A stretch of 28,657 nucleotides of DNA, from UHGV virus genome UHGV-0074437; one strand, 5' to 3'. The notes beneath the pieces were generated by a model. That model was given only the letters and a program-made list of their open reading frames with translations. It made no database searches and had not been told where the DNA came from. The translations under genes were made by a program, and so were the position numbers. Shown piece after piece: positions 1-9,210 of the stretch (position 1 is its first letter; each line of letters starts with the position of its first letter). The stretch comes from a virus.

Positions 1-363
1 ATGAACGAATATCAGTTTGTGCTTCCGTACCCGCCATCGGTGAATACCTACTGGCGAAGACGAGGAAGCCAATATTACATTAGCGATAAAGGCCAGAAAT
101 ACAGAAAAGACGTTCAGCAAATCATCCGCCAACTTAAGTTAGACATTTTCACCAAATCACGACTCCGCATAAAAGTCATCGCAGACGTTCCAGACTCCCG
201 CCGCCGCGACCTCGATAACATCCTGAAAGGTTTACTCGACTCCCTTATCCACGCCGGATTTGCGGAAGACGACGAGCAATTCGATGACATTCGCGTAATT
301 CGTGGTGTGAAAGTAGCAGGCGGACGGCTTGGAATAAAAATCACCGAACTGGAGAACGCATGA
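1..363 (+). CDS. rusA: RusA-family Holliday junction resolvase (lambdoid nin-region gene)
   Basis: 120-aa ORF starting at window position 1; N-terminus MNEYQFVLPYPPSVNTYWRRRGS and acidic D-x-D-N / DD residues match the RusA endonuclease family as recalled; sits directly upstream of ninH and Q as in lambdoid phages. The true start could lie upstream of the window. Confidence 0.8.
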   Translation: MNEYQFVLPYPPSVNTYWRRRGSQYYISDKGQKYRKDVQQIIRQLKLDIFTKSRLRIKVIADVPDSRRRDLDNILKGLLDSLIHAGFAEDDEQFDDIRVIRGVKVAGGRLGIKITELENA

Positions 364-548
364 ACGCCACAATTCAAACGATACCAGAGCTGCTTATACA
401 GGCACGAGGCAATCAGACCGAAGTGGCGAGGATGCTTTCCTGCGCAAGAGGAACAGTGCTCAAGTACAACCGAGACAGCAAAGGTGAGCGTCACGTAATA
501 GTTAACGGCGTCCTGATGGTCAAACAGGGAAAGAGGGGAAGACGATGA
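360..548 (+). CDS. ninH: NinH-like small DNA-binding protein
   Basis: 62-aa ORF overlapping the rusA stop by 4 nt (ATGA); motif GNQTEVARMLSCARGTVLKY...HVIVNGVLMV resembles lambda NinH as recalled; position immediately before Q. Confidence 0.65.
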   Translation: MNATIQTIPELLIQARGNQTEVARMLSCARGTVLKYNRDSKGERHVIVNGVLMVKQGKRGRR

Positions 549-1168
549 GACTCGAAAGCGTAGCTAAATTTCATTCGCCAAAAAGCCCAATGATGAGCGA
601 CTCACCACGGGCTACGGCTTCTGACTCTCTTTCCGGTACTGATGTGATGGCTGCTATGGGGATGGCGCAATCACAAGCCGGATTCGGTATGGCTGCATTC
701 TGCGGTAAGCATGAACTCAGCCAGAACGACAAACAAAAGGCTATCAACTATCTGATGCAATTTGCACACAAGGTATCGGGGAAATACCGTGGTGTGGCAA
801 AGCTCGAAGGAAATACTAAGGCAAAGGTACTGCAAGTGCTCGCAACATTCGCTTATGCGGATTATTGCCGTAGTGCCGCGACGCCGGGTGCAAGATGCAG
901 AGATTGCCACGGTACAGGCCGTGCGGTTGATATAGCCAAAACAGAGCAGTGGGGGAGAGTTGTTGAGAAAGAGTGCGGAAGATGCAAAGGTGTCGGCTAT
1001 TCAAGAATGCCAGCAAGCGCCGCATATCGCGCTGTAACGATGCTAATCCCAAACCTTACTCAACCCACCTGGTCACGCACTGTTAAGCCGCTGTATGACG
1101 CTCTGGTGGTGCAATGCCACAAGGAAGAGTCAATCGCAGACAACATTTTGAATGCGGTCACACGTTAG
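545..1168 (+). CDS. Q: Late-gene antiterminator Q (lambda Q type)
   Basis: 207-aa ORF, 4-nt overlap with upstream gene; zinc-binding CxxC...CxxC pair (CRDCHG...CGRCKG); sequence appears essentially identical to lambda Q from memory; followed by a PR'-like promoter and terminator. Confidence 0.9.
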   Translation: MRLESVAKFHSPKSPMMSDSPRATASDSLSGTDVMAAMGMAQSQAGFGMAAFCGKHELSQNDKQKAINYLMQFAHKVSGKYRGVAKLEGNTKAKVLQVLATFAYADYCRSAATPGARCRDCHGTGRAVDIAKTEQWGRVVEKECGRCKGVGYSRMPASAAYRAVTMLIPNLTQPTWSRTVKPLYDALVVQCHKEESIADNILNAVTR

Positions 1169-1210
1169 CAGCATGATTGCCACGGATGGCAACATATTAA
1201 CGGCATGATA

Positions 1211-1250
1211 TTGACTTTTTGAATAAAGTTGGGTAAATTTGACTCAACGA
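1211..1250 (+). promoter_or_regulatory. Late promoter PR' with presumed qut region (-35 TTGACT 1211-1216, 17-nt spacer, -10 TAAATT 1234-1239)
   Basis: Near-consensus sigma70 hexamers with 17-nt spacing located 43 nt after the Q stop, where lambda PR'/qut lies; the surrounding sequence (TTGGGTAAATTTGACTCAACGATGG) resembles the lambda PR' region as recalled. Confidence 0.6.
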
Positions 1251-1272
1251 TGGATAAATGCACTCGTTAAAT

Positions 1273-1310
1273 AAAGCCCTGAGTTAATAGCTCGGGGCTT
1301 TTTGCGTTTT
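1273..1310 (+). terminator. Intrinsic terminator of the short PR' leader transcript (tR'-like)
   Basis: Hairpin AAAGCCCTGAG / CTCGGGGCTTT (8-bp GC-rich stem with one G-U pair, 7-nt loop) followed by TTTTTGCGTTTT, about 30-35 nt downstream of the predicted PR' start. Confidence 0.6.
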
Positions 1311-1530
1311 AATCACGACCTTTCTGAAAGCACATCAAACCAAATACCAGACAGACAAAAATAATCACCTTATCCGCTGTGGCTACGGTGCGGTGTGCTT
1401 TGCATAAAAGAAAACCAGCGCAATGGCTGGCTTCGTGAAAGCGGGTGGCAAGAGGTTGCGCTAACAACCTCCTGCCGTTTTGCCCTTATTCCTAATTAAA
1501 TAGAGCAAATCCCCTTATTGGGGGTAAGAC

Positions 1531-1854
1531 ATGAAGATGCCAGAAAAACATGACCTGTTAGCCGCCATTCTCGCGGCAAAGGAACAAGGCATCGGGGCAA
1601 TCCTTGCGTTTGCAATGGCGTACCTTCGCGGCAGATATAATGGCGGTGCGTTTACAAAAACACTAATCGACGCAACGATGTGCGCCATTATCGCCTGGTT
1701 CATTCGTGACCTTCTCGACTTCGCCGGACTAAGTAGCAATCTCGCTTATATAACGAGCGTGTTCATCGGCTACATCGGTACTGACTCGATTGGTTCGCTT
1801 ATCAAACGCTTCGCTGCTAAAAAAGCCGGAGTAGAAGATGGTGGAAATCAATAA
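1531..1854 (+). CDS. S: Class I holin (lambda S type) with MKM dual-start motif
   Basis: 107-aa ORF beginning [22 protein letters not shown], matching lambda S from memory; hydrophobic transmembrane segments; CCCC...GGGG stem just upstream of the start, as in the lambda sdi structure; 17-nt overlap with the endolysin gene. Confidence 0.93.
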
Positions 1855-2314
1855 TCAACGTAAGGCGTTCCTCGATATGCTGGCGTGGTCAGAGGGAACT
1901 GATAACGGACGGCAGAAAACCAGAAATCATGGTTATGACGTCATTGTAGGCGGAGAGCTATTCACTGATTACTCCGATCACCCTCGCAAACTTGTCACGC
2001 TAAACCCAAAACTCAAATCAACAGCAGCCGGGCGCTATCAGCTTCTTTCCCGTTGGTGGGATGCCTACCGCAAGCAACTTGGCCTGAAAGACTTCTCTCC
2101 GAAAAGCCAGGACGCTGTTGCATTGCAGCAGATTAAGGAGCGTGGCGCTTTGCCGATGATTGATCGCGGTGATATTCGTCAGGCTATCGACCGTTGCAGC
2201 AATATCTGGGCTTCACTGCCGGGCGCTGGTTATGGCCAGTTCGAGCATAAGGCTGACAGCCTGATTGCAAAATTCAAAGAAGCTGGCGGAACGGTCAGAG
2301 AGATTGAGGTATGA
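1838..2314 (+). CDS. R: Endolysin, lytic transglycosylase (lambda R type)
   Basis: 158-aa ORF, sequence recalled as near-identical to lambda R ([39 protein letters not shown]...); canonical S-R-Rz order. Confidence 0.93.
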
Positions 2315-2748
2315 GCAGAGTCACCGCGATTATCTACGCTCTGATTATCTGTATCATCGTCTGCCTGTCATGGGCTGTTAATCATTACCGTGATAACGCC
2401 ATCGCCTACAAAGAGCAGCGCGATAAGACCGCATCCATCATCGCTGACATGCAGAAGCGTCAACGTGATGTAGCAGAACTCGACGCCAGATACACAAAGG
2501 AGCTTGCTGATGCTAACGCGACTATCGAAAGTCTCCGTGCTGATGTTTCTGCTGGGCGTAAGCGCCTGCAAGTCGCCGCCACCTGTGCAAAGTCAACGAC
2601 CGGAGCCAGCAGCATGGGCGATGGAGAAAGCCCAAGACTTACAGCAGATGCTGAACTCAATTATTACCGTCTCCGAAGTGGAATCGACAGGATAACCGCG
2701 CAGGTTAACTACCTGCAGGAATACATCAGGACGCAATGCCTGAAATAA
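2311..2748 (+). CDS. Rz: Inner-membrane spanin Rz
   Basis: 145-aa ORF overlapping the R stop (ATGA); N-terminal transmembrane helix ([18 protein letters not shown]) followed by a charged, coiled-coil-like periplasmic domain; position after the endolysin. Confidence 0.88.
2504..2695 (+). CDS. Rz1: Outer-membrane lipoprotein spanin Rz1, embedded in the +1 frame of Rz
   Basis: 63-aa ORF wholly inside Rz in another frame; signal peptide ending in lipobox-like VSAC, then a proline-rich mature region ([13 protein letters not shown]), the hallmark of Rz1. The exact start (2504 or a later ATG) is uncertain. Confidence 0.75.
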
Positions 2749-2780
2749 TTTTTTTGCAAATCACAAAGTCCATTTAATGA

Positions 2781-2806
2781 GCCTCGCGATGCGGGGCTTT
2801 TTTATG
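2781..2806 (+). terminator. Candidate intrinsic terminator downstream of the lysis cassette
   Basis: GCCTCGC-GAT-GCGGGGC hairpin (7-bp stem with one G-U pair) followed by TTTTTTAT, 33 nt after the Rz stop. Confidence 0.5.
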
Positions 2807-2931
2807 CGCCTCGCACGCGCAATTCAAACCAAGAACCTTTCAGGATGAACCTTGAGGAACCGGCTGGCTGTCGGAGCCTTCTTGGGGCCGTATTCCTGTG
2901 CGACAAGGTTCATCACTAAAAGGTAACTCCG

Positions 2932-3483
2932 ATGAATGATATTTCTATCGAATATCTGAAAGAAGCACTGGAATACACACCAGATTCAGGTGTTATCCGT
3001 TGGAAGCAGCGCCCCAAAAATCATTTTAAGACCGATAATTCTTGGCGGGCGACCAATGCCAATTTTGCCGGAAAGGTGGCAGGCGCACGTGATAATGATG
3101 GATATTTCCGCATCGGAATAGATGGTCGGTTATATAGATCTCATCGTGTCGCCTGGGCGTTACATTATGGCTATTGGCCTGAGAATGAGATTGATCACAT
3201 TTCAGGCGATAGAGGTGATAACCGCATAGACAACCTCCGAACAGTGACTTCGGCAGCCAACAACAAGAATTTGCGCCTTTACTCCACTAATAAAACAGGT
3301 GTCCCTGGCGTAGGTTGGTATAAAGCACGTGGGAAGTGGAGAGCAAAGATAAACGTCTCTGGAAAGGTGAAGCATATTGGTTACTTCGATGATTTCTGTG
3401 AAGCGGTGAAAGCAAGAAAGGCTGCTGAGATGAAATTGCAATATCACGAAAATCACGGAGCCGGCGACAGGCTCACTTTCTAA
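2932..3483 (+). CDS. HNH homing-type endonuclease with a C-terminal AP2-like DNA-binding domain
   Basis: 183-aa ORF; HNH_3-like motif HRVAWALHYGYWPENEIDHISGDRGDNRIDNLR followed by an AP2-like segment GVPGVGWYKARGKWRAKINVSGKVKHIGYFDDFCEAVKARKAAE; RBS-like AAAGG upstream. Confidence 0.75.
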   Translation: MNDISIEYLKEALEYTPDSGVIRWKQRPKNHFKTDNSWRATNANFAGKVAGARDNDGYFRIGIDGRLYRSHRVAWALHYGYWPENEIDHISGDRGDNRIDNLRTVTSAANNKNLRLYSTNKTGVPGVGWYKARGKWRAKINVSGKVKHIGYFDDFCEAVKARKAAEMKLQYHENHGAGDRLTF

Positions 3484-3497
3484 AAGGTAAAGACGCA

Positions 3498-4016
3498 ATG
3501 AATCATCAATTGGCTAATCTCGATTTCCGGGACATGGTGGTTGTTTCTGGTGATCGCGTGATCACAACCTCCCGCAAGGTAGCAGCTTACTTCGACAAGC
3601 AGCATCACCACATCATTCAGAAAATCGAAAAGCTAGACTGTTCGGATGAATTTCTAACCAGCAACTTTTCGCGGGTTACCTATGAACACAAGGGTAATCA
3701 GTATGTTGAATATGAAATTTCCAAAGACGGCGCGATGTACATCATCATGTCGTTTACCGGCAAAAAAGCTGCCGCCATCAAAGAGGCGTTTATCAAAGCA
3801 TTTAATTGGATGCGTGACAGGCTGATGGAGATGGCTCACTCATACCAAAGAGAGCACAACGAGTTAATGCTGGAGTTCATGAAGGAAAAGGATGTTGCCA
3901 GTATGTCAGGACGCTTGCTGAACCGCTGGGGCAGGATCAAAAAACCGCAACTCATAGCAAGAATCGAAAGGCTTGAGCAGCAGGCGCAAATATCGATCCC
4001 CGGACTGCCAAAGTGA
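3498..4016 (+). CDS. Rha-family phage regulatory protein
   Basis: 172-aa ORF; N-terminal region (VVVSGDRVITTSRKVAAYFDKQHHHIIQKIEKL...YEISKDGAMYIIMSFTGKKAAAIKEAFIKAFNWM) fits the Phage_pRha family pattern as recalled; RBS AAAGG 6 nt upstream. Confidence 0.7.
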   Translation: MNHQLANLDFRDMVVVSGDRVITTSRKVAAYFDKQHHHIIQKIEKLDCSDEFLTSNFSRVTYEHKGNQYVEYEISKDGAMYIIMSFTGKKAAAIKEAFIKAFNWMRDRLMEMAHSYQREHNELMLEFMKEKDVASMSGRLLNRWGRIKKPQLIARIERLEQQAQISIPGLPK

Positions 4017-4249
4017 CCATTCCAAAGCCCAACGGTGATGTTCTCAGAAAAATCGAGCAGGTTAAGGATGATTGCTCGCGTGAGTTTAGCCAACGCAATT
4101 TTGCGTCGGCTTATTATATCGATGAGCAGACCAAAGAGTTCTTAGCCGAGCTGGAGAAAAACCACGAATCTGTGGTTTTTACTGAGCGCGGCGCCCAAGC
4201 CAGTTTTTTTTGCATTACGGCAGTACTTCGAAACAACCCAAGCCAGTAA
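4013..4249 (+). CDS. Hypothetical small protein (GTG start overlapping the Rha stop)
   Basis: 78-aa ORF with no in-frame ATG, so it would need the GTG at 4013 (GTGA overlap with the Rha stop); no recognisable motif. Confidence 0.3.
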   Translation: MTIPKPNGDVLRKIEQVKDDCSREFSQRNFASAYYIDEQTKEFLAELEKNHESVVFTERGAQASFFCITAVLRNNPSQ

Positions 4250-4446
4250 GTGGGGAAATAACACTGGCAGCCACTGAAAGATGAACCTCCAGCCTTATGG
4301 CAAAAAAGATTCTTTGTGGTGGCGGACTGATGGAAAGACATCGGTTATTGCAGAGGCCATTCAATGAGTGGTCTCGACAATGACTTATACCCTACACGGG
4401 ATAACTTAACTGATATCCCTTTTAACGGATAAACGGAGCATAAATA

Positions 4447-4944
4447 ATGGCAAAGCTCACCGACAAACAAGAGCTGTTTGCCCATCCGGATGATGTGTAT
4501 GTCGGAGAGTGTGTGATTTATACCGGCTACATAAATAAGCGAGGGTATGGGCAGAAGCACATTTCACGAAAGCCGCACTACGCACATCGAATCGCATACT
4601 GCGAAGCTAACGGAATTTCGCTAGATAGCATCAAGGACCTGGTTGTTAGGCATAAATGCGATAATCCATCATGCGTGAATCCTGACCATCTGATTATAGG
4701 TACTGTCGCTGACAATAATCGTGACAGGTCAAGGCGAGGCAGAAACTCATACCCTGACCGTTCAGGTGAAAAGAACGGAATGGCGAAATTAAAAGAGTGC
4801 GATGTCATCTGCATTCGACGTGAATATGTCCGCGGGAGCATTGGTAGGGGGCTTAGATCCTTATCAGAGAAATATGGCGTATCGACGACCATGATTGCTG
4901 ACATCGTTAATTATAGAAATTGGAGCAACGTTTCGGGGGTGTGA
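4447..4944 (+). CDS. HNH endonuclease (terminase-associated type)
   Basis: 165-aa ORF; motif HRIAYCEANG...RHKCDNPSCVNPDHLIIGTVADNNRD, typical of zinc-binding HNH endonucleases; located immediately upstream of the terminase small subunit, the usual position for HNH proteins that assist terminase cleavage. Confidence 0.8.
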   Translation: MAKLTDKQELFAHPDDVYVGECVIYTGYINKRGYGQKHISRKPHYAHRIAYCEANGISLDSIKDLVVRHKCDNPSCVNPDHLIIGTVADNNRDRSRRGRNSYPDRSGEKNGMAKLKECDVICIRREYVRGSIGRGLRSLSEKYGVSTTMIADIVNYRNWSNVSGV

Positions 4945-4945
4945 T

Positions 4946-5500
4946 TTGAAACAGCTCACACCTAAGCAGGAACTGTTCTGCCGGGAATATTTAAAAGATT
5001 TAAACGCCACTCAGGCAGCTATCAGGGCGGGTTACAGCGAGAAAACTGCTCGCGCCACTGGTAGCGAGAACCTGTCAAAACCTGACATAGCAGATCGCAT
5101 TGCTGAGCTAAAGGCTGAACGCAATGAAGAGGTAGGTATAGACGCTGCCTATGTATTGCGACGGCTGACTGAAATCGATCAGATGGACGTGCTTGACATT
5201 CTGCTTGCCAATGGCGAACTGAAGCCCATTAAAGACTGGCCTAAGGTATGGCGCACAACGCTATCAGGAATGGATGTCGTCGAGATGGCATCAGCAGATA
5301 GCGCCGCACTTCTGAAGAAAATCAAATGGCCTGACAAGGTTAAAAACCTCGAACTTCTTGGTAAGCATGTTTCTGTTCAGGCGTTTAAAGAGCAAACATC
5401 TACAGAAATAACTGGCGCTGATGGAGGACCAGTCAGAACAGAAATTACCAACTTAACGCCGGAGCAGGCTGCAGAAGCGTATAAAAAAATGATGGGCTAA
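4946..5500 (+). CDS. Terminase small subunit
   Basis: Open frame 4895-5500; likely TTG start at 4946 (GGGGG 7 nt upstream) giving an N-terminus [31 protein letters not shown], typical of the Terminase_2 / P27-family small subunit; directly followed by the large subunit. Start codon is inferred. Confidence 0.75.
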
Positions 5501-5502
5501 GT

Positions 5503-7125
5503 ATGCCGTTACCATTTCCCTTCGATTTTAAACATCCTGATTACCAGATGGTTTTTGAATGGCGGATGGAACGCCTACAGCGCATTCGCCAGAATCCTGA
5601 AATATTGCCTGCACTAAAACAGTTTTACCGAACCAACCCGGCTCAGTTCATCATCGACTGGGGCATGACAACGGACCCGCGTAATATTGATTATGGCCTG
5701 CCGGTGACCATTCCGTTTTTACTCTTCCCTAAGCAGGAGGAGTGGATCCACTGGATTATGGAGCGCTGGGGCAATCGGGAGAATGGTATTACCGAAAAAT
5801 CCCGTGAAATGGGACTCAGTTGGACCGCGATCGGACTGGCCTGCTCGCTTTGTCTCTTCAACAAAGAAATGGTTATCGGTTTCGGCTCCCGTAAAGAGGA
5901 ATACGTCGACAGCACCGGGGACCCGAAAGCATTGTTCTGGAAGGCGCGCAAGTTCGTGGAAACACTACCTGTAGAGTTTCGCGGTTCGTGGAGCGAGAAG
6001 AAGCACGCGCCATATATGCGTGTTGAGTTTCCCGATACTGGTGCCGTTATCAAAGGCGAGGCTGGCGACAATATCGGTCGTGGTGACCGTACCACGCTCT
6101 ACCTGGTGGATGAGGCTGCATTCCTCCAGCGTCCTCTGCTGATTGACGCGGCGCTGTCGCAAACCACCCGCTGCCGTATCGACCTGAGTTCGGTTAACGG
6201 CATGGCGAACCCGTTCGCGCAGAAGCGTCACGGCGGGAAGATACCGGTATTCACATTCCACTGGCGGGATGATCCTCGCAAGGATGAAGAGTGGTATCGC
6301 AGGGAATGCGAGAAAATCGATAATCCGGTGGTGGTGGCACAGGAACTTGATCTGAACTACAGCGCATCAGCGGAAGGCGTCCTGATTCCATCCGAATGGG
6401 TACAGGCTGCCGTTGATGCGCATATCAAACTTGGTATCCAGCCAACAGGCAAACGACTTGGCGCGATGGATGTCGCTGATGAAGGCAGGGACAAAAATGC
6501 ATTTTCCACCCGTCATGGCTTCCTCCTGGAAAATGTGCGGGAATGGTCCGGTGTGGGCAGCGACATTTATCAGTCCGTCGAGAAGGTCTTCGGTTTTTGC
6601 GAACAGGACAACCTCGAAGAGTTTCGCTTTGACGAGGACGGGCTGGGCGCTGGCGTTCGCGGCGATGCACGCGCTATCAACGAACTGCGTAACGCTGCGC
6701 GCCGACCGTCAATACTCGCCACACCGTTTCGAGGTAGTGGCGCGGTATTTGATCCGGATGATGAAGCTGTTCGCGGGGACAACGGGCAAGCCGCCCGCCT
6801 GAACAAGGACTTCTTCGCTAACGCCAAGGCCCAGAGCTGGTGGCGGTTACGTAAACTTTTTCAGAATACCTGGCGCGCCGTGGTTGAAGGTATGGCTTAC
6901 AACCCGGACGAAATCATCTCAATCAGCAGTGGCATGGCACTCAAAGATAAACTCATCATCGAGCTTTCGCAGCCGACCTATTCCATTAATGGTGTGGGAA
7001 AAATCGTTATTGATAAACAGCCTGACGGCACCAAGTCGCCGAACCTCGCCGACTCGGTGATGATCAGCTACGCGCCAATGAATTCAGCCCTGAACATCTG
7101 GGAGCTGCTAGGGAGACAGGCCTGA
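5503..7125 (+). CDS. Terminase large subunit
   Basis: 540-aa ORF starting 2 nt after the TerS stop; size, position, a candidate ATPase Walker-B-like segment ([11 protein letters not shown]) and C-terminal nuclease-like acidic residues consistent with TerL. Confidence 0.88.
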
Positions 7126-8591
7126 TGGCACGAAACAAGCAAGCCTCTCAGCGAACGGCGCAGGCCACCGCTGATGGCTACGAGAACTTTGTCGCCCGCG
7201 TGGGGATGCAGACGCCTAACCAGCATTCAGCATCGACCTACCGGGCGAACTTCACCAGCCGCAACCGCATGCTGGTGGAATGGTCCTATCGTTCGTCCTG
7301 GATCATCGGCGAAGCGGTCGACGCTATCCCGGATGATATGACCCGCAAAGGCATTCGCATTACTTCGGAAATTGATGCAAAAGATCGCGGCATTCTCGAA
7401 TCACAACTTGATGAGTTGCAGATCTGGGATGCGCTGAACGACGTGCTGAAATGGTCTCGCCTCTACGGCGGCGCGGTCGGCTTCATCATGATCGAGGGGC
7501 AGGCACCAATGACCCCGCTGCGGCTCGAAACCATTGGAGAAGGCAAGTTTAAGGGCATTCTCCCGCTCGACCGCTGGATGATTAACCCGGTGCTGACACG
7601 CCGCATTAAAGAGATGGGGCCGGACCTCGGCAAGCCTGAGTTTTACGACGTGGTGACCACCGCAACGGGCATTCCGGCCTGGCGCATCCATCACAGCCGC
7701 CTGATCCGCTTCGACGGGGTGACGCTGCCATTCCAGCAGAAGATGACCGAAAACGAATGGGGAATGTCGGTTGTAGAGCGAATCTGGGATCGGCTTACTG
7801 CGTTCGACAGCGCCACTGTCGGCGCGGCGCAGCTGGTCTACAAAGCGCATTTGCGTACCTACAGCGTGGAGAAGCTACGCGAGCTTATCGCACTTGGTGG
7901 TCCTGCGTATGAAGCGCTGCTGAAGAACATCGACCTGATCCGCCAGTTCCAGAGCAATGAAGGCATGACGCTCATGGACTCGCGGGATAAGTTCGAAACC
8001 CACCAGTACAGCTTCAGCGGTCTGGATGACATTCTTTCGCAGTTCGCTGAGCAGATCAGCGGTGCCGTTGGTATCCCGCTGGTGCGACTGTTCGGTCAAT
8101 CCCCGAAAGGCTTCTCTACTGGTGACGCAGACCTCGCCAACTATTACGACCGGGTGAGCTCATTGCAGGAACGCCGCTTACGGATGCCGATGCGCCGGAT
8201 ACTGGACATTATGCACCGCTCGGAACTCGGTAAGCCGCTGCCGGACGATTTCACGTTTGAGTTTAACCCGCTCTGGCAAATGTCTGATGTCGATCGCTCA
8301 ACGGTGGCGTTAAACACTACCAACGCAATCAGTACGGCGCTGGGTGATGGTCTGATGACACTGAAAGCCGCTATGACCGATTTGCGCGAAAATTCTGACG
8401 TAACCGGCATCGGGGCGTCCATTACCGACGAGGACATAGAGAATGCCGAAGACGAAGCGCCGCCAGGCATCGGCGAACTTGGCGACAAACCGCCAGAGTC
8501 GCCAGGCGGAGATCCGATATCGAACGAGCCTACGGCAGATAGCGCGGGCGGTCGGGGATATCGTAAATGGTCGCTACGATGGTTCAAATGA
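7125..8591 (+). CDS. Portal protein
   Basis: 488-aa ORF overlapping the TerL stop by 1 nt (TGATG); size and position after TerL; acidic C-terminal tail; sequence resembles the DUF1073-type portal family as recalled. Confidence 0.82.
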   Translation: MARNKQASQRTAQATADGYENFVARVGMQTPNQHSASTYRANFTSRNRMLVEWSYRSSWIIGEAVDAIPDDMTRKGIRITSEIDAKDRGILESQLDELQIWDALNDVLKWSRLYGGAVGFIMIEGQAPMTPLRLETIGEGKFKGILPLDRWMINPVLTRRIKEMGPDLGKPEFYDVVTTATGIPAWRIHHSRLIRFDGVTLPFQQKMTENEWGMSVVERIWDRLTAFDSATVGAAQLVYKAHLRTYSVEKLRELIALGGPAYEALLKNIDLIRQFQSNEGMTLMDSRDKFETHQYSFSGLDDILSQFAEQISGAVGIPLVRLFGQSPKGFSTGDADLANYYDRVSSLQERRLRMPMRRILDIMHRSELGKPLPDDFTFEFNPLWQMSDVDRSTVALNTTNAISTALGDGLMTLKAAMTDLRENSDVTGIGASITDEDIENAEDEAPPGIGELGDKPPESPGGDPISNEPTADSAGGRGYRKWSLRWFK

Positions 8592-9210
8592 CAGTGTCAC
8601 CGAAATAATGGATGCGCTGGAGCGCTACAGCGAAATCATCACCCCCTGGGCGACGAAGGTTGCTGAGAACTTTACCGCCGACATTGCGCGCCAGAATGAA
8701 AAGCAGTGGCGTCAGCACAGCAGGAACATCAGCGCAGAGCTGCGCAACATGGTCGACCGCGCCCCGGTAGGCCAGGTGATGAAATCCATCGTCGCCGAGC
8801 AAATTAAGTACATCAAGTCACTGCCTCTTGAGGCCGCCGATCGGGTGTATGACATTCAGAACAAGGCCATCGAGGCCGTTGTGTCTGGTGGCCGCGCTGA
8901 GCCATTCGCGAAAGAGATAGCTGCGTCCGGTGACGTGTCACGCTCACGAGCGAACCTTATCGCCCGTACCGAGCTTGGACGCGCAACCGGCGCGCTCGAT
9001 CAGGCGCGTGCGCTGTCAATCGGCTCGAATGGTTATATCTGGCGTACAGCCGAAGATGGCGACGTCCGGCATTCTCATCGGGAGATGGAAGGTAAGTTTG
9101 TCGAATGGGGCAAACCTCCAACGCTTGATGGCATGACCGGTCACGCTGGCGAGCTCCCGAACTGCCGCTGTTACAAAGAAATCGTTTTTAATGAAGGTGT
9201 ATTCAAATGA
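8443..9210 (+). CDS. Head morphogenesis protein (Mu F / SPP1 gp7-like)
   Basis: 255-aa ORF; C-terminal region [47 protein letters not shown] fits the Phage_Mu_F family pattern; GAGGA RBS 7 nt before the ATG at 8443. That start implies a 149-nt overlap with the portal gene; an alternative in-frame ATG at 8608 lies just past the portal stop, so the start is uncertain. Confidence 0.7.

Follow-up and report, generated by a model that had tools for sequence, protein, structure and literature searches.

We characterized the region between the lysis and terminase genes of UHGV-0074437, a viral genome of 28,657 nucleotides (nt) that as a whole is here called the window. In this region, two genes for HNH endonucleases, HNH1 and HNH2, flank a Rha-family regulator gene and a short open reading frame (ORF). 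All four genes were found in the ORF list at the positions that a previous, sequence-only reading of this DNA had given them, on the + strand: HNH1 at 2932-3483 (183 amino acids), rha at 3498-4016 (172 amino acids), the short ORF of 78 codons at 4013-4249 (78 amino acids) and HNH2 at 4447-4944 (165 amino acids). The same reading had called two different HNH endonucleases, a Rha protein, and a GTG start for the 78-codon ORF within a mosaic hotspot, and each of these calls was upheld. Pfam placed HNH_3 in HNH1 (E = 1.7e-18) and HNH_3 together with zf-His_Me_endon in HNH2; the rha product carried an N-terminal Phage_pRha and a C-terminal ORF11CD3 domain and scored above the TIGR02681 cutoff; the GTG of the short ORF overlaps the rha stop codon (GTGA); and three mosaic segments meet in the region at conserved linkers. 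Pfam and PHROG scans identified Q, holin, endolysin, and Rz as the upstream neighbors, and TerS (Terminase_2), TerL, and a Phage_portal_3 portal protein as the downstream neighbors. Two non-coding blocks complete the layout, a structured leader after Rz (2806-2931, +), which serves HNH1 here, and a second conserved linker (4215-4446, +) in front of HNH2.

Comparison with relatives that lack HNH2 showed that this gene begins as another gene does. In local BLAST, the HNH-less allele of the prophage TUM2820 aligned to two parts of the window, 4217-4483 and 4953-8098, with a stretch of about 30 nt matching both places. Base by base, nt 1-37 of HNH2 (4447-4483, +; ATGGCAAAGCTCACCGACAAACAAGAGCTGTTTGCCC) are the native start of terS, present together with its upstream linker and ribosome-binding site (RBS), and the native terS 5' end of HNH-less alleles reads ATGGCAAAGCTCACAGACAAACAAGAGCTGTTTGCCCGTGAGTACCTGAAAGA. 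These 37 nt matched HNH-less terS alleles at 36-37 positions (97-100% identity; 8 loci from at least five genera), as against 66-80% identity over the rest of terS. The terS gene itself (4946-5500, +; assigned by Pfam and PHROG), host to the HNH2 cassette, most likely starts at the TTG at 4946 and not at the TTG at 4895 that would give the longest ORF, because the Prokaryotic Genome Annotation Pipeline (PGAP) called the former in the identical I3 locus and homologues begin there. This TTG lies 1 nt past the TGA of HNH2 and is preceded by a G-rich Shine-Dalgarno (SD) sequence at 4933-4939. In some alleles carrying HNH2 (L065-L068, L070, and L073), an ATG is found in frame 17 nt upstream of the terS TTG, inside the 3' end of HNH2 (MFRRCDLKQ...); the window has ACG at 4929-4931 instead, and the terS restart codon may therefore differ between alleles.

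The first 16 codons of this terS (4946-4993, +) are a recoded duplicate of the captured start that moves with the cassette. They differ from the HNH-less allele at 18 of 48 nt, compared with 36 of 507 nt (7.1%) elsewhere in the gene (P = 1.9e-9), and the changes comprise eight synonymous codons, the ATG-to-TTG substitution, and four amino-acid replacements. We found that the two versions of the terS 5' end have opposite relations to their surroundings. In HNH-less alleles, nt 1-45 were 96-100% identical, synonymous sites included, while the remainder of the gene was 38-86% identical (L005, L009, L054-L062, and L142), and this native 45-nt haplotype occurred in Escherichia, Shimwellia, Pantoea, Erwinia, Symbiopectobacterium, and Pluralibacter. 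In HNH-containing alleles, it was the recoded 51 nt that were 98-100% identical, on three terS lineages whose remaining sequence was 40-76% identical. Moreover, homology of three loci with divergent backgrounds (L069, L070, and L071) to the window started exactly at the HNH2 ATG and stopped 100-250 bp into terS. Judged by these junctions, HNH2 is a discrete cassette within the 5' end of terS. An origin of HNH-less terS by deletion between the two repeat copies was rejected because its codons 13-16 read CGT GAG TAC CTG and those of the second copy CGG GAA TAT TTA.

A distant relative of HNH2 (39% identity) has the same arrangement in a GC-rich phage with a different terS (L121, 2661-3727). Its N-terminus, MSLTPKQQRFVE, mirrors that of its own TerS, MTGLTPKQTRFVQE, with synonymous differences at the DNA level, and its stop codon overlaps the terS ATG; going by these features, L121 is an independent instance of the same design. 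The 5' codons of terS in L121 have AT-rich third positions, unlike the copy on the HNH side. We did not generalize duplication of the 5' end of the gene downstream to a habit of the HNH2 family: when the 5' ends of HNH genes and of their downstream genes were compared at about 110 loci, the similarity was convincing only in the E. coli terS clade and in L121, and the other high scores came from short, unconvincing matches.

The captured N-terminus also stands out within the protein family. Homologues outside the terS-linked clade align with HNH2 only from about residue 20, and their usual N-terminus is ...ERFWSKV.K..CWEW; most of the distant relatives precede varied, unrelated genes and have no LT.KQ add-on. 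The LT.KQ motif was accordingly rejected as a native family trait, being confined to terS-linked members and L085. In L085 (2998-3453), an HNH2 relative starts with the TerS-like MRLTDKQM before the native DRFWSKV motif. It adjoins an integrase gene, terS is absent downstream, and the gene may have been relocated with a captured N-terminus retained. A further protein, P0182 (224 amino acids, KilA-N and ORF11CD3), shares 89% identity with one third of HNH2, and its ORF is apparently a chimera that arose in this hotspot.

As a protein, HNH2 is a putative homing endonuclease. It scored 37.6 bits against HNH_3 (PF13392; cutoff, 24.8) and matched zf-His_Me_endon (PF05551) and no other Pfam family, and residues H69, C71, D72, C76, H81, and N90 were invariant among homologues. 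Its structural model has a C-terminal helix-turn-helix, with a predicted local distance difference test score (pLDDT) of 53 for residues 1-10, and a sequence search of PDB with HNH2 returned zero matches. Of the E. coli genomes in which this terS family occurs (368), 14 had the gene, and the same TerS/TerL/portal module was found free of any HNH gene in TUM2820 (95% identity) and in phage vB_EcoM-606R2. The copy in CUPF09 (L008, 4119-4617) contains one extra A, at the equivalent of about 4554, that causes a +1 frameshift and leaves terS, terL, and portal intact; from its sequence, it looks like a decaying homing-endonuclease copy.

HNH1 is likewise a putative free-standing homing endonuclease, predicted to join an I-HmuI-like nuclease to a C-terminal AP2 domain. 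Its sequence matched I-HmuI (PDB 1u3e) at E = 4e-4, and its AlphaFold model, computed with 53 homologues (pLDDT 93.7), retrieved the same I-HmuI structure first in Foldseek, with a probability of 1.00. The AP2-like domain that the sequence-only reading had named fell below the Pfam cutoff (PF00847, 16.2 bits against 33.3), but it was borne out by the predicted fold and by relatives of HNH1 that do carry PF00847. The modeled C-terminus consists of three strands (127-130, 135-142, and 145-152) and a helix (155-168), and it matched the plant AP2 domains of AtERF1 (1gcc), TEM1, and WRI1 at a probability of 0.99, with a root-mean-square deviation of 1.4 Å over 50 residues for AtERF1. The catalytic residues D88-H89, N97, N101, and N110 were invariant in the 53 homologues.

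HNH1 is rare, occurring in 2 of 5426 complete E. coli genomes, and its position is fixed. At all 13 HNH1 loci, the same leader of about 125 nt precedes the gene, which always sits at the same leader position and always ends within a second copy of the last ~30 nt of the leader (GACAGGCTCACTTTCTAAAAGGTAA...ATG). In the window, this partial copy (3464-3497, +) forms a direct repeat with 2900-2926. The final 6-7 codons of HNH1 and its stop lie within it, as does the SD of rha, and the anti-SD strand is absent from it. The repeat was present at every one of the 13 loci whatever gene came next, and at least seven different genes did, including three Rha types, KilA-N, and at least three unrelated genes. 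I3, TUM2820, EC-07, and CUPF09 have no HNH1 and show an intact leader followed directly by rha. This pattern fits a site-specific insertion into the leader, for which homing is a candidate route. The rha gene of the window is 99.6-99.8% identical to that of the HNH1-less prophages, in which it follows the intact leader directly; it is the resident gene that lost its place at the leader to HNH1.

The leader is conserved at 84-88% identity in more than 300 phage records, from lambdoid, Shiga toxin (Stx), and Klebsiella phages, and at least 32 variants of it precede at least ten gene types, among them ant, rha, kilA-N, and HNH genes. It folds into an extended hairpin (about 2835-2925; minimum free energy -48.8 kcal/mol, z = -3.4), whose basal helix joins the anti-SD CCUUU (2836-2840) to the SD AAAGG (2919-2923). 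RNAalifold analysis of 14 diverse variants gave 31 consensus pairs, 16 of them with compensatory changes; 92.8% of alignment cells were paired, compared with 35-47% when the partners were slid, and the observed covariation was reached by 0 of 500 shuffles. We consider the leader a candidate translational riboregulator. The intact copy in the window serves HNH1, and rha retains the 3' strand alone (3464-3490), so that its SD has no pairing partner. An Rfam covariance-model scan of 2600-5200, which covers both leader and linker, returned zero matches at E <= 1.

The second linker is conserved too. This block of about 230 nt was 92-99% conserved in 200 phage records of HK97-like, P22-like, and Stx phages, whatever packaging module follows, and we detected no notable ORF within 4215-4446. 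It folds with z = -3.8 and has too little variation for covariation analysis. Its 3' end is GGAG-N7-ATGGCA, and this ATG opens terS in HNH-less relatives, HNH2 in the window, and an 80-codon ORF in HK97 and Dewey. HNH1 and HNH2 thus both begin at linker-provided starts and therefore occupy what is the translation start of the resident gene in HNH-less relatives.

Local BLAST of the left 9 kb of the window against annotated relatives resolved three segments. Positions 1-3502 resemble phage Dewey (97.5%) and include HNH1, which lies in a stretch that is uninterrupted from 1484 to 3502; 3466-4455, with rha and the short-ORF region, resemble the E. coli EC-07 prophage (99%); and 4215-9000, with HNH2, terS, terL, and portal, resemble the E. 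coli I3 prophage (98.6%). The overlaps between segments are the joints, 3466-3502 at the 3' end of the leader and 4215-4455 at the second linker, and both are conserved non-coding DNA. The sequence-only reading had placed HNH1 exactly where lambda-identical sequence ends and suggested that the gene marks or made the mosaic junction, and neither point found support. Identity to lambda was 92-96% and this homology ended at 2559, inside Rz, while homology to HK97-type phages (96.7%) continued to 2812. The breakpoint at 2805-2812 lies directly 3' of an intrinsic-terminator-like hairpin and T-run distal to Rz (2779-2805, +), which a terminator scan identified, which is kept in all relatives as the left edge of the variable region, and which we used as the anchor for fetching 120 loci. 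The same breakpoint is found in the HNH1-less relatives I3, TUM2820, EC-07, and CUPF09, where rha follows, and in HK97, where gp73 follows; it is therefore a general module boundary that bears no imprint of HNH1. Together, these results support that the interval from Rz to terS is a module-exchange hotspot between two conserved non-coding linkers, each of which supplies an RBS and an ATG to whatever gene comes next, and that the cluster is an ordinary moron region carrying a homing-endonuclease insertion design and a leader RNA that had no annotation. Dewey has two more annotated HNH endonuclease genes just upstream of rusA (L001, 727-1504), and such genes therefore collect at several module junctions in these phages.

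Short conserved linkers or boundaries at lambdoid module junctions are reportedly a theme of the HK97/HK022 and HK620 comparative papers and of the modular theory. The leader and linker described here are likewise short conserved stretches joining otherwise unrelated modules. Unlike plain boundary sequences, the leader after Rz has a covariation-supported RNA fold that sequesters an SD, which makes it likely to have a function beyond that of a recombination substrate.

The genes between the two endonucleases record earlier exchanges at the hotspot. The Rha N-domain was unambiguous (PF09669, 84 bits against a cutoff of 29.9; TIGR02681, 76 bits against 46), and a literature search on recent work on Rha function found nothing specific. 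The 78-codon ORF, which the sequence-only reading had left as an unassigned gene, turned out to be a chimera of rha-allele and kilA-N fragments. Positions 4032-4129 match, in frame and at 97% identity, a stretch inside another rha allele (L146, 3179-3276), and 4125-4191 match, again in frame and at 100% identity, a stretch inside the Dewey kilA-N gene (5438-5504). PHROG and Pfam profiles detected only a fragment of the Rha N-domain in it (16 bits, about one third of the domain), which does not make it a Rha family member, and PGAP called its EC-07 equivalent a Rha pseudogene. We interpret this ORF, from its composition, as a non-functional relic of earlier exchanges between rha and kilA-N alleles. 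EC-07 has neither HNH1 nor HNH2 but does have this scar, which therefore predates or is independent of both. Kinship with the 85-amino-acid ORF behind kilA-N in Dewey and ET650 was rejected, as there was zero DNA similarity. Rha and KilA-N alleles at this position (3498-4016 in the window; 5311-5808 in Dewey, L001) have a common C-terminal ORF11CD3, and the swapping of N-terminal DNA-binding domains on this common module may favor the recombination behind the scar at 4017-4214.

Two unrelated free-standing homing-endonuclease genes, inserted at the translation starts of rha and terS, are in our view the best explanation of the locus, with a probability of about 70%. Both genes are sporadically present or absent at one site among collinear relatives. 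Genomes without them keep a conserved candidate target, which is the leader for HNH1 and terS nt 1-45 for HNH2. The carrier differs at the terS target: nt 37 is the last position of copy A before the interruption, and copy B is recoded. The same HNH2 cassette recurs with short flanks on divergent backgrounds, and both proteins retain an HNH_3 core of the I-HmuI type with its catalytic residues.

HNH1 sits behind an intact leader, with a second copy of the last ~30 nt of the leader at its 3' end giving the displaced rha an SD. HNH2 is inserted after terS codon 12 and would be translated from the native terS RBS and ATG, so that it begins with 12 TerS residues; the TTG and recoded codons 1-16, 1 nt past the HNH2 stop, restore an intact terS. 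From this arrangement, we infer cleavage specificity, homing, and immunity as follows. In genomes without the respective gene, HNH1 would nick or cut the leader and HNH2 the nearly invariant ~45-nt terS 5' end, and repair from the endonuclease-carrying genome would copy the cassette in. The carrier would be immune because its target copy A is interrupted and its copy B is recoded. All genes of the cluster are probably expressed from the Q-antiterminated late transcript; a scan of the + strand over 2600-5200 found zero sigma-70-like promoter sites, and expression from own promoters was therefore set aside.

Several observations weigh against this reading. Ordinary homologous recombination at conserved linkers would give many of the same junctions, and this is a serious alternative for HNH1 in particular, whose flanks and junction pattern recombination at the leader could also produce. 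The leader-like 3' tail of HNH1 evolves as coding sequence (D-R-[LA]-[TA]-F) and is therefore an integral part of the gene and not necessarily a fresh target duplication. The fold matches of HNH2 were weak (I-PpoI and Smad MH1, probabilities of 0.66-0.85). HNH2 and its distant relative in L121 both adjoin terS, so some link to packaging is possible. Finally, the nucleotide conservation of the native terS 5' end may reflect another function, such as translation or packaging, or a role as a recombination linker.

In the leading rival account, the HNH genes would be passive cargo (morons), moved by ordinary homologous or illegitimate recombination at the linkers without homing, and the recoded terS 5' end would come from another natural terS lineage. 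The Dewey-like (1-3502), EC-07-like (3466-4455), and I3-like (4215-9000) segments do meet exactly at the linkers, many non-nuclease genes are swapped behind the leader too, the leader in front of HNH1 is a natural variant also seen before other genes, and the terS 5' end of L121 is similar to the recoded copy. Passive transport nevertheless leaves unexplained why native terS codons lie in HNH2 with a second, recoded copy behind it, why a near-invariant cassette with its recoded 51 nt sits on three terS lineages with 40-76% identity in the rest of the gene, and why divergence is focused on synonymous sites of exactly the duplicated stretch; the retention of all invariant catalytic residues in HNH1 and HNH2 also speaks against it. 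We consider this account unlikely.

The sequence-only reading had assigned HNH2 to the terminase-helper position. In such a role, HNH2 would be an accessory nuclease like HK97 gp74, the phi12/phiSLT HNH, or Skunavirus HrdP, required together with TerL for cutting concatemers, and its place in front of terS would follow from that role. HNHs beside terminase genes are indeed well documented (PMC9410871, PMC12967558, PMC3592412), and HNH2 shares with these proteins the place directly upstream of terS, to which it is apparently translationally coupled (1-nt spacer); its distant relative in L121 abuts a terS too. Helper HNHs, however, accompany cos/HK97-type machinery (PMC9410871, PMC12967558) and are universally conserved within their phage group (PMC12967558). 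What sets HNH2 apart from them is its Pfam family, its domain architecture, the type of packaging, and how it is conserved. It is of the HNH_3/His-Me type, as opposed to PF01844 in HK97 gp74 and in the helper-type HNH of EC-07, which adjoins a P27-family TerS, and its predicted C-terminal helix-turn-helix is typical of site-specific homing enzymes. In a PDB search, TerL (5503-7125, +; also assigned by PHROG) was closest to Sf6 gp2 (4idh, 1e-28) and TerS to SF6 G1P (3zqp, 2e-15), not to cos/HK97 types, and an NCBIfam search returned zero matches for HNH1, HNH2, TerS, and TerL. The Sf6 gp2 and SF6/SPP1 G1P terminases are presumably headful systems. The packaging module moreover occurs without HNH2 in many prophages and in the sequenced phage 606R2, only 14 of the 368 genomes carry the gene, one copy is frameshifted, and most family members flank unrelated genes. 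HNH2 is thus probably not a DNA-packaging helper, and we regard a helper function as improbable.

That the nucleases serve mainly as weapons, cutting the conserved leader or terS start in related phages that co-infect or reside in the cell, by marker exclusion or competition between phages, with spread as a by-product, is in keeping with targets common to hundreds of lambdoid and P22-like phages and with documented marker exclusion by phage HNH homing enzymes (PMC2988022, PMC12724721), but it is very improbable as the main role, since rarity (HNH1 in 2/5426 and HNH2 in 14/368 genomes) and a decayed copy fit a selfish life cycle better than a selected benefit, and it overlaps with the homing-endonuclease explanation, the two not being mutually exclusive.

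Homing endonucleases inserted at two translation starts have clear parallels. The free-standing enzymes of T-even phages (mobE, segA-G) perform intronless homing, are sporadic, coupled or tightly packed, co-spread their flanks, and target conserved genes (PMC2988022). The HNH cassettes resemble them in having no intron or intein, in being sporadic among relatives and closely packed with or coupled to their neighbors, and in apparently spreading with flanking DNA and targeting conserved genes. The T-even genes are found in intergenic positions or divide a gene so that two polypeptides result, and the cut is often hundreds of bp distant; HNH2, unlike them, lies inside the coding 5' end, forms a 12-residue fusion from the host RBS and ATG, and keeps the host gene whole through a recoded duplicate. 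Homing-type HNH genes in coding regions without intron or intein, as in HNH2, are exemplified by mobE, which splits nrdA in Aeromonas phage Aeh1 (PMC2988022), and by a 'hidden' out-of-frame HNH (ShiLan) within a phage methylase (PMC11855218). In those cases the host protein is divided, or the HNH is translated in frame with it and forms an additional loop, whereas the host ORF of HNH2 is regenerated by the recoded 5' duplicate. A literature search of incomplete coverage turned up no account of a cassette that uses the host start and carries a recoded duplicate, which is absence of evidence only.

HNH1 resembles I-HmuI (1U3E), the intron-encoded nicking enzyme of the Bacillus phage SPO1, in its nuclease domain and in having a modular C-terminal DNA-binding domain; it is free-standing and has an AP2 module, whereas I-HmuI is intron-encoded and has helical and helix-turn-helix modules. 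Bacterial and phage HNH-AP2 homing endonucleases were reportedly proposed by Magnani and colleagues in 2004 as the ancestors of plant AP2/ERF factors. In these enzymes, as in HNH1, an AP2 fold made of three strands and one helix comes after the HNH_3 nuclease, with no notable difference in the protein; what is new in HNH1 is the insertion site, a structured leader common to lambdoid phages.

If this explanation is correct, the HNH2-type cassette would be a distinct way to colonize an essential coding region without intron or intein. The insertion would lie a few codons in, borrow the host RBS and ATG for a short N-terminal fusion, and be followed by a coupled restart on synonymously recoded, cleavage-immune codons. 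Tentatively, and at somewhat under even odds, we propose both that this cassette is such a distinct route and that the leader is a previously unrecognized SD-sequestering riboregulator of hundreds of lambdoid phages, which HNH1 would target and take over, leaving the rha SD unsequestered. For annotation, many pipelines and readers call any HNH adjacent to terS a packaging component, and here the sequence evidence points to a selfish element; Pfam subfamily, polymorphism, and a duplicated target would be the criteria that separate selfish from helper HNHs. The terS cassette suggests how a homing-endonuclease gene can reside in an essential coding sequence without burdening the host, and it predicts a concrete target of about 45 bp together with its immune variant. 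For phage evolution, the point of note is that the mosaic joints coincide with two conserved non-coding linkers, one of which has a covariation-supported RNA structure, and this leader probably governs how the accessory genes that follow Rz are translated in many phages of the lambdoid, Stx, and P22-like types.

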